Part shown: positions 7,522 through 20,008 of the stretch, piece after piece
Layout: the number at the start of each line of letters is the position of its first letter
Position numbering within the stretch: position 1 is the stretch's first letter
Source: a virus
Lineage: Duplodnaviria > Heunggongvirae > Uroviricota > Caudoviricetes
Virus record (IMG/VR): IMGVR_UViG_2740892271_000004
Direction: 5' to 3' (one strand)
Length of the DNA: 44,313 nucleotides
Notes under the pieces: generated by a model
Database searches by the model: none
Told to the model about the DNA's origin: nothing
What the model saw: the letters and a program-made list of their open reading frames with translations, nothing else
Program-made: the position numbers and the translations under genes

Positions 7522-8036
7522 TGTTCTTTAAAACATCAAACCCTTCCGCGCTGGCTGCGTGGCAAAAATACCAGCAGGACTGCCAGAAAGTTAAGGATGA
7601 GGCAAAACGCCTTGAGGCCGTGCTGAATGTTGCGTGCCGGTCGGTATTTGTATCCGGTATCAGTGGATTTTACTTTAAGGGACTGCGTTTTACGGAGGAC
7701 AAATATCCTTTTCATCGCGACTTATGGCGAAAACCGACTGCGTCGAATGGCTGGAGCTGCACACCGCGCACATCACGTATCCCTAAAACCCTGCGTGTTG
7801 CCTCTGATGAACTGAACAGTCTGTGGCGTGAATATTCGCCCGTCACGTATGCCAGAACCGATGCGCTGTTGTTCTGGTTGGGTATTGATTTCTCGGCAAT
7901 CCTGTTTGGCCCTGTGAAGTGGTTCTGCGTTGACGATGTGATTTACCTTCAGTGCGGCGTAAAACCCGCAAAACAGAAAATGACCGAAATACTGTCTGAT
8001 GAGTTTTATGCTGCTGAAAAGCGAGTCAGGGGGTGA
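7521..8036 (+). CDS. Hypothetical early protein
   Basis: 171 aa, TAATG overlap with upstream gene. Confidence 0.45.
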   Translation: MFFKTSNPSALAAWQKYQQDCQKVKDEAKRLEAVLNVACRSVFVSGISGFYFKGLRFTEDKYPFHRDLWRKPTASNGWSCTPRTSRIPKTLRVASDELNSLWREYSPVTYARTDALLFWLGIDFSAILFGPVKWFCVDDVIYLQCGVKPAKQKMTEILSDEFYAAEKRVRG

Positions 8037-8039
8037 TGC

Positions 8040-8591
8040 ATGATGAAATTACAACCCATGGGACTAAAAGGTCGCGCCCCCGCTCATGTCCGTCCGTGGA
8101 CACCTGAAGAAGATGCGCTGCTGATTGCGCTTTATTCATCCACCCCGGTTAAGGATATTGCTGCCAGAATAAAAAGAACTGTCTGGGCTGTATATAACCG
8201 GACTGGTGTATTGCGCAGTTCATACCCGGAGTTACTGAAATATAAACACCCAAGATTTACACCTGATGAAGATAAGTTTATTCGAAAAAATGCCAGAACA
8301 ATGACCTGCCAGCAAATGGGAGAATATCTCGGACGTAATAAAGATTCTGTCAGATGTCGGGCAGGAATGATTGGTGCTGGATTAACAAAGTGCGGAGAGT
8401 TACGCCCCGGCACGCGCATATCTGATGATGATGTACGTCTTATACGTGAGCTGCGTGATTCCGATTACCCACGCCGTCTGTCATTCCGGGAAATTGGCGA
8501 AAAGTTTGGAATATCTGAACATTCTGCTCACGCAGTTTATTACCGTCGCCGGACTGCCGAGGACGCTGTATTACGGGAGTTAACGCCATGA
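8040..8591 (+). CDS. Hypothetical DNA-binding protein with three HTH/Myb-like repeats
   Basis: 183 aa; three repeated modules WTPEEDALLIALY..., FTPDEDKFIRKNA..., ISDDDVRLIRELR...FREIGEKFGISEHSAHAVYYRRR. Confidence 0.5.
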   Translation: MMKLQPMGLKGRAPAHVRPWTPEEDALLIALYSSTPVKDIAARIKRTVWAVYNRTGVLRSSYPELLKYKHPRFTPDEDKFIRKNARTMTCQQMGEYLGRNKDSVRCRAGMIGAGLTKCGELRPGTRISDDDVRLIRELRDSDYPRRLSFREIGEKFGISEHSAHAVYYRRRTAEDAVLRELTP

Positions 8592-8920
8592 TAACGACCT
8601 TATTTGTTGAATCAGATGAACCTCTTGTGTGTGCCGCCGGAATGCCGCTCTGTGGCGGAACGCTGACCGGCGTTTATTTCGGGGATTTGCGCGGTTATCC
8701 CTGGCATTCACTGGATGACGCATTTCCGCCTGATATGGAGGCTGTCGTGCTGATTGTTCAGTATGGTGACCAACAGGAACTGCGCATCGGCCATATGGGG
8801 TATGAAGGCTTTTTTATTGATGAAGAAACCGGAGCCTGCCTTGAAGATGAGGACGGACAGGTGACGCACTGGTGCCATCTTTCGGCCTTGCCGGAATTAC
8901 AGGGGATACATAATGGATGA
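8588..8920 (+). CDS. Hypothetical early protein, acidic
   Basis: 110 aa, ATGA overlap with upstream gene. Confidence 0.45.
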   Translation: MITTLFVESDEPLVCAAGMPLCGGTLTGVYFGDLRGYPWHSLDDAFPPDMEAVVLIVQYGDQQELRIGHMGYEGFFIDEETGACLEDEDGQVTHWCHLSALPELQGIHNG

Positions 8921-9056
8921 GCAAATTGTTGAATGTCCCACCTGTGGAAATGAGGACCCGGAGTATCTGAAAGAGTGCCCACATTGTGGTGAGATAAAAT
9001 GTAACCACTGCGATATGGGCGACGACACTGCATGTATAAATTGTGAGGATGAATAA
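8913..9056 (+). CDS. Small zinc-ribbon protein (four CxxC motifs)
   Basis: 47 aa MDEQIVECPTCGNEDPEYLKECPHCGEIKCNHCDMGDDTACINCEDE, below the ORF-track size cutoff; start overlaps upstream stop. Confidence 0.5.
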   Translation: MDEQIVECPTCGNEDPEYLKECPHCGEIKCNHCDMGDDTACINCEDE

Positions 9057-9057
9057 T

Positions 9058-9345
9058 ATGGAAAAAGAAATCAAATTTGCGCCTAAATCTATCGACGAAG
9101 AACTGGCTAAAATCGGCATGCTTGAACGTATGCGGGACATTATCGAATATGCGATAAAAGAAAATCTTGCAGCCAGAGAAGCCCTTTTGATAATGGAGCG
9201 GGAGATTAACCTGATTAAGGATGCTGTATCTCTGGATAATAAAATAGCCCGCGAGGAATACGTTCGCCGTAGGCTCGGTGTTGATGGTTCAGCAATTCTT
9301 ACATCTGAACATTATGCAAAAATTTTTAATCTTTTTCAGCGGTAA
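9058..9345 (+). CDS. Hypothetical helical protein, AT-rich
   Basis: 95 aa from ATG 9058 (ORF track 9043-9345). Confidence 0.45.
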   Translation: MEKEIKFAPKSIDEELAKIGMLERMRDIIEYAIKENLAAREALLIMEREINLIKDAVSLDNKIAREEYVRRRLGVDGSAILTSEHYAKIFNLFQR

Positions 9346-9565
9346 TCCCCATACAGGCCCGGAGATTGTCGAAATGCCAGTCGGTATTAATATATGAGCC
9401 ATCCTGGATATCTTCTGCATTTTCCGGGGTAGAGTTTTTTTGAGCGAGATTGATAATATGTATTGCCTCCTCACGGGAAATCAGCCCCTTATCGAACAGG
9501 GTTACCATAAGATTTCCAGCCATTGTGAATGCGGCAACATCAAGTGCATTTTTTATATCTGACAT
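9326..9565 (-). CDS. Hypothetical protein, opposite strand to the early operon
   Basis: 79 aa; SD AAGGA about 8 nt upstream of ATG at 9565; convergent with 9058-9345 (20-bp overlap). Confidence 0.45.
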   Translation of the reverse strand: MSDIKNALDVAAFTMAGNLMVTLFDKGLISREEAIHIINLAQKNSTPENAEDIQDGSYINTDWHFDNLRACMGITAEKD

Positions 9566-9592
9566 AGATTTTTCCTTTTATGTTAATTGACA

Positions 9593-9621
9593 TGGCGGTG
9601 CGGTAACACCGCCCATTTTTT
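9593..9621 (+). terminator. Intrinsic terminator, candidate early-operon terminator (Mu t9.2 equivalent)
   Basis: Stem GGCGGTG / CACCGCC with loop CGGTAA followed by CATTTTTTAT; about 8.95 kb from the prophage left end. Confidence 0.7.
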
Positions 9622-9635
9622 ATGGAGCCACGATA

Positions 9636-10148
9636 ATGAATCGCGCTTCCCTGATTACCTTAATACATGTCGCAAAACGCGATCTACAGCTTGACCATGA
9701 TACCTATACATCCGCGCTGCTGGCAGCCACCGGCAAATCCAGTTGCCGTGATATGTCACCCGGTGAGTTATCCCGCGTGCTGGATGTTTTCAAAAAACGC
9801 GGTTTTAAAGTGCGTCAGAAGCCGGTTAACCGGGCCTTAAAACCGGGTACGGTGACCGCCAAAATTCGCGCCATCTGGAAAGTGATGCACCGGCAGGGAT
9901 TTATCTCTGATGGCGGGGAAACGGCCCTTAACCGCTGGGTGAAATCGCAGACGGCCGCGCAGAACGACGGCGAAGGTGTGGCTAACTGGCAGTGGCTGGA
10001 GCAACAACCCGCGCTGGCCTCTGATGTGCTGGAGCGTCTCAAACGCTGGCACCGCCGCAAAATGCTGGCAGCCCTGGATATGTCGGAACGTGCAGTGATG
10101 AGTTATGAGCGTGTTTGCAGGCTGTATGAAAAATCATTCCCCCGTTAA
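9636..10148 (+). CDS. gemA: GemA-like protein (Mu gp16, DUF1018)
   Basis: 170 aa; MNRASLITLIHVAKRDLQLDHDTYTSALLAATGKSS resembles the Mu GemA N-terminus as recalled. Confidence 0.7.
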   Translation: MNRASLITLIHVAKRDLQLDHDTYTSALLAATGKSSCRDMSPGELSRVLDVFKKRGFKVRQKPVNRALKPGTVTAKIRAIWKVMHRQGFISDGGETALNRWVKSQTAAQNDGEGVANWQWLEQQPALASDVLERLKRWHRRKMLAALDMSERAVMSYERVCRLYEKSFPR

Positions 10149-10152
10149 CCCC

Positions 10153-10184
10153 AAATCCCGCCACAGCGCGGGATTTTTATTTTA
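10153..10184 (+). terminator. Intrinsic terminator-like hairpin after gemA
   Basis: 9-bp stem AAATCCCGC / GCGGGATTT, loop CACAGC, followed by TTATTTT. Confidence 0.6.
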
Positions 10185-10218
10185 AACTTGCCCTGTGTAA
10201 TGATGACCGGAGGCGGGT

Positions 10219-10641
10219 ATGGCTGAAACACAGATGAGCATGTTTGGTGACAGCGAACAGCTGCACGCGCTGATTGACCGTCTGGATGATATTCCTGATG
10301 ATGAGCTGAAAAAGAACTGGCCCGGCACGCTGCGGGACCTGGTTGATGTGATCAGTGCTGAACTGCACCGTCAGGGGATTGAACCTGCTCAGGCGGGAAT
10401 GCTTGCCCGTAAGGTTGCAGCCGCACAGGCCGGGTACATGGGCGGGCGTGGTTATTATCTCCCGGTCGGTGAATCCCTTTTCACCGAACTGCGCAATAAT
10501 GAAATTTTTTCCCGCTGGAGCCAGGGCGAAAAAATTGAAACCCTGCGCCGCCACTACCAGATGTCAGAGACGCAGATTTACTCCGTTATCCGCAACCAGC
10601 GTCGCCTGCATCAGGAACGCACGCAGCCACGGCTTTTCTGA
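10219..10641 (+). CDS. mor: Mor/C-family transcriptional activator
   Basis: 140 aa; acidic N-terminus and C-terminal HTH (ETLRRHYQMSETQIYSVIRNQRR) as in Mu Mor/C; only one family member present. Confidence 0.8.
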   Translation: MAETQMSMFGDSEQLHALIDRLDDIPDDELKKNWPGTLRDLVDVISAELHRQGIEPAQAGMLARKVAAAQAGYMGGRGYYLPVGESLFTELRNNEIFSRWSQGEKIETLRRHYQMSETQIYSVIRNQRRLHQERTQPRLF

Positions 10642-10657
10642 TATTCCGCAAATCCTG

Positions 10658-10662
10658 CCCCC
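10658..10662 (+). promoter_or_regulatory. Poly-C motif in candidate late promoter upstream of lys
   Basis: CCTGCCCCCTTTTCC 55 bp upstream of the lys start; similar C-runs upstream of I (18806-18812) and N (25041-25047). Confidence 0.35.
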
Positions 10663-10712
10663 TTTTCCTCACGGTTACGCTGACTCAGAGAACACCATGA
10701 GACAGCGTAACA

Positions 10713-11213
10713 ATGCCAAAACTCCCCGCACCCCTGCGTAAAAAGCTGATTGCCCTTGTTCTGGCCGGAGCCGGGACGTTCACCATTGCCACGCACTACA
10801 CCGGCTACTGGGAAGGGAAAGAAAACACCACGTACATTGATCCCACCGGCACCCCCACCATCTGTTACGGCCATACCGGCCCGGATGTGAAACCGGGGAT
10901 GACAAAAACTGATGAAGAGTGTCTGGAGCTGCTGGAAAAGGACATGAAATGGGCCTTTGCGGCTATCGATCGTCATGTTCAGGTGCCGCTTACCCGTGGT
11001 CAGACGGTGGCGCTGGCCTCCTGGATTTTCTGGGCCGGTGAAACGAACTTTCGCAACTCCACGCTCCTGCGCCTTATCAATGCCGGGCAGATGCCCGCGT
11101 CCTGTAAGCAGTATATCCGCTGGATTTATTCAAAGGGGGTAAAACTCCCCGGTCTTGAGGCCCGCCGTTCGGCGGATGAATGGTTATGTCGTTACGATTT
11201 GCCGAAAGTCTGA
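10713..11213 (+). CDS. lys: Endolysin, lysozyme-like with N-terminal signal-anchor (SAR-type)
   Basis: 166 aa; hydrophobic N-terminus KLIALVLAGAGTFTIATHY, then YTGYWEGKENTTYIDPTGTPTICYGHTG typical of phage lysozyme; Mu lys position. Confidence 0.85.
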   Translation: MPKLPAPLRKKLIALVLAGAGTFTIATHYTGYWEGKENTTYIDPTGTPTICYGHTGPDVKPGMTKTDEECLELLEKDMKWAFAAIDRHVQVPLTRGQTVALASWIFWAGETNFRNSTLLRLINAGQMPASCKQYIRWIYSKGVKLPGLEARRSADEWLCRYDLPKV

Positions 11214-18102: not shown

Positions 18103-18185
18103 CGGTCAGTGGCGGGGGTCGAACCCGCATACATGATCCACCCGGAGGCAGGCACCGACTTTACCAGTTAAGCGTACACTGACCG
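18103..18185. other. Structured element in F-G intergenic region: 9-bp closing stem enclosing a tRNA T-arm-like hairpin
   Basis: CGGTCAGTG (18103-18111) pairs with CACTGACCG (18177-18185); inner hairpin GCGGG-GGTCGAA-CCCGC; on the minus strand this reads GCGGG-TTCGACC-CCCGC next to the 3' acceptor-like strand; U-rich tract follows on the plus strand. Confidence 0.4.
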
Positions 18186-18874: not shown

Positions 18875-20008
18875 ATGAAGACAGAAAATCACCCAAAAGA
18901 CGCAAATCGCCCCTCCGGTTTAGCCGTGCTTTCAGCTTCGCTGACTGCATCCGGCGACGGATGGTGTCAGTTACTGCCAGCCGGTCGGGTAAAGGCCCGT
19001 GACGGTCGCCCGGAAAAACCGACTGAAGGCTGGCTGATTAACGAATCCGCCTGTAACCGGATGAAAGCCGGGCTTTCCGCCCTGCATCAGCCGTTACTGA
19101 TTGATTATGACCATCACTCCGTGAATGCGCAGAAAAACGGATTCAAGGCTATTGCTGCAGGATGGGTTAAGCCGGAAAACATCGAATGGCGTGAGGGTCA
19201 GGGGATTTTCATTAAACCTGAATGGACACCACAGGCACAAAAACATATTGATGACCGTGAATATGCCTATCTGTCTGCATATATGCATTATTTCGCTGAC
19301 ACCGGGGAACCCTACCTGTTGCGCATGGCTTCCCTGACGAATGATCCGGGTATTACGGGTATGAACCCTGTCGCGGCACTCAGTGCTGATGATCTCTATG
19401 TCGTTTCCCCTTCTCAGGAGCAATCCCCCATGAATGAGCAATTACGCCAGTTGCTGACGGCGCTCGGTCTGACCGTGGCTGACGGTGACGAATTTACACC
19501 GGAACTGGGCACGGCGGCGCTGTCTGCCCTTACCGGGATCAAAACCCGTGCGGATGCGCACGACACCCTGAAAACGCAGGTTGCCAGCCTGTCGGCAGAA
19601 CTGGAAACCGCAAAAGGCACACCAACTGGCGGCACTATTGATCTGACGAAATATGTGCCCGTTGAGACGTATAACGCCCTGCGTACCGAATATGCCGCGC
19701 TGTCGGCACAACACGGCAGCACCACGCTGGAGCAGTTGCTGGATAAGGCCGAGTCCGAAGGACGCATTTTCAAAAGCGAACGCGGATACATGGAAGGACT
19801 CGGACAACAGATTGGCGTCGCGGCACTTTCTGCACAGCTTGACGCCCGCCAGCCGGTTGCGGCTCTGACCACTCTTCAGACCGACACCGTAACCGTGCCG
19901 GATAAAAAGACCGCCACCGCTGTGCTGTCGGCTGAAGATATCGCCGCCGCACGTCTGTTGGGTAAAACCGAAGCCGAGTTCCTGAAAATGAAAGAGGAAA
20001 TGCAATAA
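18875..20008 (+). CDS. Head protease/scaffold protein, Mu I (gp32)-like
   Basis: 377 aa; N-terminal protease-like region and C-terminal Ala/Leu-rich scaffold-like region; precedes major capsid gene. Confidence 0.85.
   Translation: MKTENHPKDANRPSGLAVLSASLTASGDGWCQLLPAGRVKARDGRPEKPTEGWLINESACNRMKAGLSALHQPLLIDYDHHSVNAQKNGFKAIAAGWVKPENIEWREGQGIFIKPEWTPQAQKHIDDREYAYLSAYMHYFADTGEPYLLRMASLTNDPGITGMNPVAALSADDLYVVSPSQEQSPMNEQLRQLLTALGLTVADGDEFTPELGTAALSALTGIKTRADAHDTLKTQVASLSAELETAKGTPTGGTIDLTKYVPVETYNALRTEYAALSAQHGSTTLEQLLDKAESEGRIFKSERGYMEGLGQQIGVAALSAQLDARQPVAALTTLQTDTVTVPDKKTATAVLSAEDIAAARLLGKTEAEFLKMKEEMQ

Follow-up and report, generated by a model that had tools for sequence, protein, structure and literature searches.

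What does a small gene on the opposite strand contribute to the early region of a Mu-like phage? The question is raised by a 44,313-nucleotide stretch of phage DNA (IMG/VR record IMGVR_UViG_2740892271_000004; 'the window' below), in which positions 8913–9621 were singled out in an original prediction as an AT-rich island at the end of the early operon. The features behind that prediction are all real: three ORFs, of 47 aa (with four CxxC motifs), 95 aa (helical) and 79 aa (on the minus strand, with its own Shine-Dalgarno site), and a hairpin followed by a T-run. Homology and gene order show the block to correspond to the gp13–gp14–gp15 segment in the semi-essential early region of a Mu-like Escherichia coli prophage. 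We consider it probable, if short of assured, that a joint explanation holds, in which this identity, an inherited gene-and-hairpin unit and a mechanism of convergent transcription bounded by the hairpin belong together.

The Mu gp13–gp14–gp15 segment

Pfam and PHROG matches place the window in a Mu-like context, and it is 100% identical to a prophage of E. coli HH35 in which the repressor, ner, A, B and gam lie upstream. The block had been taken for the last ∼700 bp of the early operon. However, gemA (9636–10148, plus strand; PF06252, E = 1.8e-28; Shine-Dalgarno GGAG at 9624–9627) is the first gene 3′ of the hairpin and mor (10219–10641, plus strand; PF08765) lies downstream of gemA, with a second terminator-like hairpin between the two (10153–10176, plus strand). 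The reported drop in GC is real but modest rather than sharp, at 0.416 for 8913–9621 against 0.528 for the window. Among stretches of that size it ranks at the 5.6th percentile, and several others are just as low.

The first ORF of the block (8913–9056, plus strand), found by ORF calling and assigned by BLASTP and PHROG searches, encodes a zinc-ribbon-like protein of 47 aa that is homologous to Mu gp13 (E14). The preceding ORF, of 110 aa, ends in a stop codon that overlaps this start (ATGGATGA). Over the four-CxxC core, 36 of 41 residues are identical to Mu gp13 (88%; BLASTP E = 2e-27), and the protein matches phrog_5584 (E = 3e-26); a match to the Lar family was sub-threshold (E = 0.2). All eight cysteines are retained across 6 alleles, and dN/dS is 0.06–0.30, a range drawn from few substitutions. 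PGAP left the ORF unannotated in the identical HH35 record. As in Mu, it sits directly upstream of gp14 in the early operon. Order and orientation are alike in the two phages, and Mu gp13 differs in its 19-aa N-terminal extension, which the window protein lacks.

The second ORF (9058–9345, plus strand; 9043–9345 if translation begins at a GTG) encodes the 95-aa homologue of Mu gp14 (E15), again with order and orientation as in Mu. The match to Mu gp14 is full length, with 49% identity over 94 aa (BLASTP E = 1e-30), and the protein also matches phrog_6075 (E = 5e-44). Its AF2 model contains three helices (pLDDT 75), and dN/dS lies between 0.13 and 0.37.

An opposite-strand gene had been thought atypical for Mu. 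RefSeq record NC_000929 nevertheless annotates one at the same position, Mup15 (gp15, NP_050619.1, 88 aa; phrog_8747), on the complementary strand between gp14 and gemA; SfMu_16 has an equivalent placement. On these comparisons the three ORFs of the block are homologues of Mu gp13, gp14 and, at profile level, gp15. Judged by gene content and order, the block is the canonical Mu arrangement and not a foreign or unusual island. The window differs from Mu in having two extra genes, for a 183-aa Myb/SANT-like protein and for the 110-aa protein, between gp12 and gp13. The locus is a re-discovery of the Mu gp13–gp15 region, and current understanding of it stands. A literature search for the function of gp13, gp14 or gp15 found no report.

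The leftward gene and its relatives

The 79-aa ORF (9326–9565, minus strand) encodes an acidic helical protein of the gp15 superfamily and is divergent from gemA and convergent with the gp14-like gene. A Shine-Dalgarno sequence, AAGGA (9573–9577, minus strand), lies 7 nt before its ATG (9565–9563). At the other end, the 3′ ends of the gp14-like and gp15-like genes overlap by 20 nt (9326–9345), and convergent overlaps are also found in Mu (62 nt) and in contigs L013 (4 nt) and L017 (32 nt). The AF2 model of the protein has four helices (pLDDT 79), its pI is 4.5 and its net charge is −7. This charge speaks against a DNA-binding regulator. A membrane location, suggested by the hydrophobic first helix, was likewise rejected: the maximal Kyte-Doolittle value over 19-residue windows is 1.27–1.5, the first helix contains an invariant Asp and an invariant Asn, and AF2 packs it as the core of the bundle.

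The protein matches phrog_32893 (E = 1e-45). Its homologues in other Mu-like prophages, at 37–49% identity, align over their full length, keep the motifs FDxAAFTxAGNL and DWHLDNL, and are unchanged in position and orientation; a scan of genome contigs with the 79-aa protein returned no match. Pairwise BLASTP against Mu gp15 was not significant, and the relationship emerges at the level of profiles, with hhalign joining the 79-aa family to the Mu gp15 family at a probability of 97% (E = 8e-11). Across the gp15-superfamily profiles, hhalign probabilities range from 93 to 98% (E = 3e-7 to 1.6e-13), PHROG cross-hits are seen as well, and three related PHROG families (phrog_8747, 32893 and 38610) make up the superfamily. 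Its N-terminal domain, also present in the 79-aa protein, follows the pattern (F/Y)D(V/I)A(A/G)(F/Y)..(A/S)G(N/A)L...L..KG.I...EA.

The likeness to Mu gp15 and SfMu_16 extends beyond this domain of ∼50 aa. All three genes run leftward between gp14 and gemA, converge on gp14 and overlap its 3′ end, and start ∼70 nt from the gemA ATG with a GGCGGTG...CACCGCC hairpin in between. In contrast, the C-terminal halves of Mu gp15 and the window protein are unrelated: DWHLDNL occurs in the window family and not in Mu gp15, and the net charge of Mu gp15 is −1. The leftward genes of the D108 and Klebsiella types (phrog_38610; P0011 family) share superfamily, slot and hairpin with the window gene. They differ from it in a C-terminal LFNKLW motif and, in D108, an N-terminal acidic extension. 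Leftward genes of one diverged superfamily thus precede gemA in Mu, SfMu and D108 and in Mu-like prophages of Klebsiella and E. coli.

Public annotations conflict over this gene. RefSeq Mu keeps it; the updated GenBank Mu record (AF083977.1) replaces gp15 with a plus-strand 55-aa ORF, Mu_54; and the D108 record (GQ357916) leaves it unannotated. One may ask whether the 79-aa frame is open by chance, with the genuine feature being either non-coding or, like Mu_54, encoded on the plus strand. The frame antisense to gp15 is open for 66–71 codons in Mu-type sequences, and frameshifted alleles of the 79-aa ORF exist. Open-frame length was discarded as a means of choosing between gp15 and Mu_54 because both Mu frames stay open, so the argument for the leftward frame rests on homology and synteny. 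Besides the full-length homologues with their shared motifs, position and orientation, the Shine-Dalgarno site and the three PHROG families, the ORF is intact and annotated by PGAP in all 14 complete E. coli genomes that carry it. It is also under purifying selection, the absence of which would have counted against the original prediction: dN/dS is ∼0.25 (0.23–0.28, from 13.5 synonymous and 13.5 non-synonymous changes), equal to that of gemA. The comparative evidence thus favours the leftward frame over Mu_54, and a chance frame, already largely refuted, is very improbable. The frameshifts fall in the C-terminal half in five of the ten protein clusters of the 79-aa family, which makes the leftward gene dispensable in some lineages.

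Searches for signals that would express this gene were negative within their scope. No position-conserved sigma-70-like site was found on either strand among 12 phage variants, and the sole sigma-70-like match in the window, with a −10 ending at gemA +61, has been disrupted in its sister alleles. On the minus strand, no terminator-like site occurs within 8500–10800, and the fold downstream of the leftward stop is unremarkable.

The hairpin before gemA

The hairpin (9594–9621 with its T-run, plus strand) reads GGCGGTG-CGGTAA-CACCGCC, a 7-bp stem with six G-C pairs around a 6-nt loop (9594–9613), followed by T6 at 9616–9621. The original description of a textbook intrinsic terminator is apt as to form: a G+C-rich stem, a short loop and a predicted U-tract on the 3′ side make up the canonical shape. 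As 'the early terminator' it does not hold, with gemA and mor still to follow. Moreover, three terminator-like sites were found in 2.3 kb where 2.7 are expected by chance, so the pattern match carries little weight by itself and the case for the hairpin comes from its conservation.

That conservation is extensive. The hairpin is found upstream of gemA in Mu, SfMu, D108 and IMG/VR Mu-like contigs, and six distinct variants are 100% paired, with compensatory changes in two of the seven pairs and a T-rich tail directly 3′ of the stem in every variant. It accompanies all 19 gp15-superfamily configurations and none of the 21 in which a rightward gene abuts gemA. Comparison identifies the window hairpin as a lineage variant of an enterobacterial pre-gemA hairpin of Mu-like phages, in which the loop has changed completely, the stem has been kept and a T6 run has been gained. 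An Rfam search of the region gave no family, at the hairpin or anywhere else. As a site for the Mor/C activator it was rejected, since its distance from each of the two start codons does not fit an activator site at −43.5.

Alternatively, the hairpin might be no terminator at all. In Mu, the tail that follows it (CCCTTTCC) makes a poor U-tract and termination may fail at this site, and the TTGCAG loop is unchanged among phages with flanking proteins of only 40–50% identity, more conserved than a terminator needs, which hints at another role. Both observations would suit a signal for gemA expression, either a 5′ stem-loop that stabilizes a gem mRNA begun just upstream or a palindromic operator that the divergent promoters of gp15 and gemA share. 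A 'semi-early' promoter of Mu is annotated in the equivalent place of record AF083977.1 (8151–8217), covering the hairpin sequence, and by our reading an A/T-rich element lies 1–14 nt upstream of the hairpin in all variants. Against such a signal stand the T-rich tract behind every stem and the compensatory changes, which fit RNA pairing, as well as the window variant itself, which exchanged its loop while holding the stem and acquiring T6. Loci in which a rightward gene directly adjoins gemA also lack the hairpin, which would make sense if its task arises only when gemA lies behind antisense sequence that is left untranslated. We regard a gemA expression signal as a credible minority reading, doubtful on the present balance.

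The inherited unit and its possible roles

In a survey of Mu-like viral contigs, a gp14-like gene was present at 15 of 15 gp15-superfamily loci and at 0 of 36 other loci, counts that come from related phages and not from independent samples. At all 15 loci the two genes form a convergent, overlapping pair beside the hairpin. Contig L043 has lost gp15 precisely and kept gp14 and the hairpin; no locus in the survey has gp15 without gp14. These patterns show one inherited unit: a rightward gp14, a leftward gp15-superfamily gene overlapping it at the 3′ ends, and, up against the ribosome-binding site of gemA, a G+C-rich hairpin with its T-rich tail. To this unit the zinc-ribbon gp13 is optional.

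The block is also variable, as the original prediction had anticipated. Of 232 E. coli genomes with this prophage family, 14 carry it as one of several interchangeable cassettes, and the slot between the 110-aa gene and gemA has at least four alternative contents, of which the block is one. The gp13–gp15 block is exchanged whole, not the leftward gene alone, and elsewhere the leftward position holds an unrelated DUF2513 gene or nothing. Positions 9487–9695 are nearly invariant among six alleles, with 1 substitution in 209 nt where the flanking sequence diverges by ∼8%; they take in the leftward gene over its 5′ third, the intergenic region and gemA codons 1–20. The cassette that is exchanged has its right edge (9617–9663) within this stretch, and recombination at the border of a module could account for the near-invariance without appeal to function.

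Such exchange is what an accessory island for anti-defence or superinfection exclusion would show. The interchangeable slot with its unrelated contents, the small and acidic proteins (pI 4.05 for the 47-aa protein, and the 79-aa protein as above) and the GC below the window mean all point that way. A precedent at a different locus comes from another transposable phage, Fc02, in which exclusion is mediated by small genes that the lysogen expresses from the strand opposite the lytic operon (PMC9936078). However, nothing of known role was matched among PADLOC, Pfam and NCBIfam families or among solved and predicted structures. PADLOC-DB gave no match at E ≤ 1 for the ORFs, Mu gp15 or the DUF2513 alternative, and sequence searches of Pfam, NCBIfam, PADLOC and the PDB gave no usable match for the 79-aa or 95-aa proteins; Hsp70-lid matches to these two (E = 0.035) were set aside as weak, coiled-helix noise. 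Foldseek found nothing at E ≤ 0.001 for either AF2 model against the PDB or for the 79-aa model against BFVD, and its sole suggestive row was Q38493, an N-terminally extended Mu gp15 ORF (TMq 0.59). In addition, phages with proteins as far apart as 35–50% identity still inherit gp14 and gp15 together, as a stable pair, which makes a conserved phage function likelier than a sporadically acquired moron. The window gene does resemble Hendrix-type morons in being small, unreadable from the surrounding operon and lower in GC, in a slot of variable content, and in its sporadic presence, as part of the whole block, among otherwise similar phages. Yet the scans gave no recognizable promoter or terminator of its own, and in diverged phages the gene keeps strictly to the company of gp14 and the hairpin. 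A defence-related role, although compatible with the joint explanation, is unlikely.

The strict co-occurrence could also mean that gp14 and gp15 are antagonists, with lytic gp14 neutralizing lysogen gp15 at the level of both protein and antisense RNA. The conserved convergence of their overlapping 3′ ends would suit this, as would the loss of gp15 with retention of gp14 and the hairpin in L043 and the lack of any surveyed gp15 locus without gp14. Known type II toxin-antitoxin pairs, however, are co-directional operons and not convergent genes, and neither protein matches a toxin or antitoxin family. Co-occurrence may reflect linkage inside one short recombination module, and the surveyed loci are phylogenetically related. 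Among the hallmarks of a type II pair, co-occurrence alone fits, and we judge antagonism decidedly unlikely.

The joint explanation, which we favour, would work as follows. Early transcription from Pe would read gp13 and gp14, continue antisense over the leftward gene, and be stopped or attenuated at the hairpin. Termination would be stronger in this lineage than in Mu because a full T6 tract has been acquired. Expression of gemA–mor would in that case rely on read-through or a separate promoter, and since these genes lie downstream, complete termination would be viable only in the latter case. In Mu, the gem operon is constitutively expressed in lysogens, according to the passage of PMC3820752 that cites Paolozzi and Ghelardini (1992). 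The leftward gene could not be expressed from Pe and would require its own promoter to its right, an arrangement that would uncouple it from the lytic early operon and oppose it to that operon by convergent transcription. Most likely, the gene would be expressed in the lysogen, or constitutively but weakly, until induction turns it off.

Face-to-face transcription of this kind has a known counterpart. In coliphage 186, the convergent promoters pR and pL are the lysis-lysogeny switch itself. Both systems set two units face to face with overlapping RNAs (predicted here), one of them lytic, but the window pair lies deep inside the early region. More speculatively, and improbable as a whole, gp14, the leftward gp15 and the hairpin may form a conserved convergent-transcription device. 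Its leftward protein would be made only while Pe is repressed and could supply a lysogen function of the semi-essential region that lacks a gene, such as 'cim'. This genetically defined function (control of immunity) has, to our knowledge, never been assigned to an ORF. Induction would silence the leftward gene by antisense transcription, and the hairpin would meter read-through into gemA–mor and so time the late cascade. If this is true, the GenBank Mu annotation, with its plus-strand Mu_54, dropped a real gene. The strength of the hairpin before gemA–mor, in turn, seems to vary between lineages, which would bear on late timing with a single Mor/C activator.

Prophage setting and the rightward genes

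The block at 8913-9621 sits in a Mu-like prophage of E. coli. Window positions 8588-10148 are 100% identical to E. coli HH35, whose prophage adjoins udk, inside a disrupted MASE1 gene, and carries repressor, ner-like, transposase A, B and gam genes on the upstream side and mor, lysozyme and head genes on the downstream side. In HH35 the lysis gene directly follows mor without a separate C operon, an arrangement also described for some other Mu-like phages (PMC4553209). gemA (9636-10148) lies directly downstream of the block, followed by mor (10219-10641), so the original reading of this stretch as the end of the early region, with the early terminator, fails. The drop in G+C content is real (0.416 versus 0.528 for the window) but not exceptional, at the 5.6th percentile of same-size windows.

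All three ORFs were found where the original prediction had placed them. The 47-aa ORF with four CxxC motifs (8913-9056, plus strand) matches phrog_5584 (E 3e-26); its identity with the four-CxxC core of Mu gp13 is 88%. The 95-aa ORF (9058-9345, plus strand) matches phrog_6075 and shares 49% identity with Mu gp14 over its full length; its AF2 model is a three-helix hairpin (pLDDT 75). At the DNA level, Mu 7528-7875 aligns with window 8931-9293 at 72% identity. PGAP left the 47-aa ORF out of the identical HH35 record, and the other E. coli genomes inspected likewise lack a PGAP annotation for it.

Between gp12 and gp13, positions 8040-8920 hold two genes without a Mu counterpart. One encodes a 183-aa Myb/SANT-like protein (phrog_323, ‘D5-like transcriptional regulator’); the other, which marks the conserved left edge of the exchangeable cassette, encodes a 110-aa protein (phrog_6925, weak DUF551). 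Elsewhere in the window, 41436-41943 is a masked run of 508 N. A minus-strand PGAP ‘tRNA-OTHER’ at about 18104-18183 (19017-19096 in the compared locus L003) falls between the minor head protein and virion morphogenesis genes; ARAGORN found no tRNA in the whole window.

A leftward gene shared with Mu

The third ORF (79 aa; 9326-9565, minus strand) matches phrog_32893 and, as predicted, has its own ribosome-binding site, AAGGA, 7 nt before the ATG. Close relatives are few, with 10 clusters among 5.8 billion proteins, E. coli throughout. An exhaustive HMMER search extended the family to proteins of 67-85 aa at 37-49% identity, encoded by Mu-like prophages of Klebsiella and other enterobacteria in exactly the window's position and orientation: the genes diverge from gemA across a gap of about 70 nt, and on the other side they converge on and overlap a ~100-aa gene that is a gp14 homologue. 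The family retains the motifs FDxAAFTxAGNLLxxLxxKGxxSxEEA and DWHLDNL. The product is acidic (pI 4.5), not membrane-like, and is modelled by AF2 as a four-helix bundle (pLDDT 79, pTM 0.66).

Mu carries an 88-aa minus-strand ORF at the equivalent position, Mup15/gp15 in RefSeq, and SfMu_16 is arranged in the same way; contrary to the original prediction, an opposite-strand gene is thus not atypical for Mu. Pairwise BLASTP between the 79-aa protein and Mu gp15 was not significant. The family profile matched Mu gp15 alone (prob 93%, E 3e-7), a small Mu-type alignment (prob 97%, E 8e-11) and a third branch comprising D108, L104 and L107 (prob 98%, E 1.6e-13). PHROG cross-hits agree with such a gp15 superfamily, and in a BFVD fold search the extended Mu gp15 ORF (Q38493) came sixth, though without significance (TMq 0.59). 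Given the profile and synteny matches, the opposite-strand gene is a local version of a gene present in Mu itself. That the whole block is the Mu gp13-gp14-gp15 segment is highly probable.

Public records conflict over this gene. RefSeq NC_000929 has gp15 as 88 aa on the minus strand (L021 497-763), and the updated GenBank Mu record AF083977.1 (L001) instead has a plus-strand 55-aa ‘Mu_54’ at 2461-2628 in place of gp15 (2397-2663, minus). In the D108 record, a 119-aa leftward ORF of the superfamily (L023, about 625-981, minus) is unannotated. On homology and synteny, the frame read leftward is the more probable gene.

Purifying selection on the 79-aa ORF, a point raised in the original prediction, is evident: its two main allele groups differ by 13.5 synonymous and 13.5 non-synonymous changes (dN/dS 0.23-0.28), a level matched by gemA (0.25) and by the gp14 homologue. 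Most changes fall in residues 28-62, leaving the first 27 and the last 17 residues nearly unchanged. Each of the 14 complete E. coli genomes carrying the ORF has it intact. In a large collection, 5 of its 10 protein clusters are frameshifted at differing positions in the C-terminal half, with at least one such allele seen in two independent assemblies, and the viral contig L043 has a precise deletion of the Mu-type gene. On all of this evidence, the leftward gene is considered real but dispensable. At least five independent frameshift alleles (P0005, P0007-P0010; L130, L131) all break 3′ of the conserved N-terminal domain; one lies at an A7 run (9436-9442), and four enter one shared alternative open frame (9289-9474, minus).

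The hairpin and the exchangeable module

A hairpin, GGCGGTG-CGGTAA-CACCGCC (9594-9613), followed by a T6 run, precedes gemA. Its counterpart, the 20-nt element GGCGGTGTTGCAGCACCGCC, stands upstream of gemA in Mu, SfMu, D108 and many IMG/VR Mu-like contigs, in which the flanking proteins are only 40-50% identical. All seven pairs are kept in each of six distinct variants, with compensatory changes at two pairs (T-A to C-G; G-C to T-A or G-T). The covariation score was matched or exceeded in 4 of 500 shuffles and in no slid control. Downstream of each variant come a T-rich tract and, after it, the gemA GGAG(G) site. The window's variant resembles a textbook terminator because of its different loop and longest T-run; the Mu tail, CCCTTTCC, is weak.

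Across 55 distinct gemA-upstream configurations, which come from related phages and are not independent samples, the hairpin accompanied gp15-superfamily leftward genes in 19 of 19, DUF2513 leftward genes in two of six, and none of the 21 with a rightward gene running into gemA. Two loci lacking a leftward gene (L043, L052) keep it. The exact Mu element also occurs in G+C-rich viral contigs without a recognisable gemA downstream (L027, L037, L044, L049, L036), in four of which an ORF of opposite orientation begins right beside it. Two E. coli genomes (L007 2819-3516, L008 2792-3488) carry an IS1A insertion in or next to the hairpin, on the stretch separating gemA from the start of the leftward gene; L008 has also lost the segment from gemA up to and including the head genes.

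All 15 IMG/VR loci that carry a gp15-superfamily gene have a gp14-like gene in the 700 nt preceding gemA, compared with 0 of 36 loci of other kinds; just 7 of the 15 also have the gp13 zinc ribbon. The inherited unit is therefore rightward gp14, leftward gp15 and the hairpin, without an obligatory gp13. As the original prediction had anticipated, the block is variable: the prophage family's flanks occur in 232 of 5426 complete E. coli genomes and the block in only 14. In others, unrelated genes fill the slot: four rightward ORFs (O157 type), one ORF (STEC2018-607) or two ORFs together with a leftward DUF2513 gene (AF39). Slot boundaries lie at about 8903-8926 and 9617-9663, and a near-invariant stretch (9487-9695) that crosses the right one may be the homology used in module exchange. 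The unrelated DUF2513 gene (115-138 aa, phrog_585) lies leftward just upstream of gemA in other Mu-like prophages (L006 2525-2872 minus; L050, L056, L083, L108, L120, L127), with or without a G+C-rich hairpin beside it, by locus. In L005 a leftward 140-aa gene instead separates gemA from mor.

Possible transcription and roles

Early transcripts from Pe, the early promoter, would cross the leftward gene in antisense and be attenuated at the hairpin; gemA-mor would then be served by read-through or its own promoter, and the leftward gene would be expressed independently of Pe and antagonised by it. This mechanism is offered tentatively, with well under even confidence. A semi-early promoter is annotated at 8151-8217 in Mu's GenBank entry, and the gem operon is described as constitutive in lysogens in work cited in PMC3820752. 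Neither a conserved sigma-70-type promoter of the leftward gene nor a leftward terminator for it was found. A non-terminator role for the hairpin is a less probable alternative. A second, stronger terminator-like hairpin, AAATCCCGC-CACAGC-GCGGGATTT with a T-rich tail (10153-10176), lies between gemA and mor, so the prophage's only Mor/C-family activator is preceded by two such sites in series.

An accessory anti-defence or exclusion role, as first suggested, is unlikely. Searches of Pfam, NCBIfam, PADLOC, PDB sequences and folds returned nothing informative on function. That gp14 and gp15, strictly linked and overlapping, form an antagonist pair is a distinctly improbable reading. The original prediction asked whether the three ORFs are core genes whose function is established; conservation in Mu holds for them, but they are neither core nor of known function. 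The block belongs to known, uncharacterised Mu families and does not represent a novel type of element. Two side results merit keeping: public records disagree over gp15, and a gp15 superfamily is strictly linked to gp14 and the hairpin.
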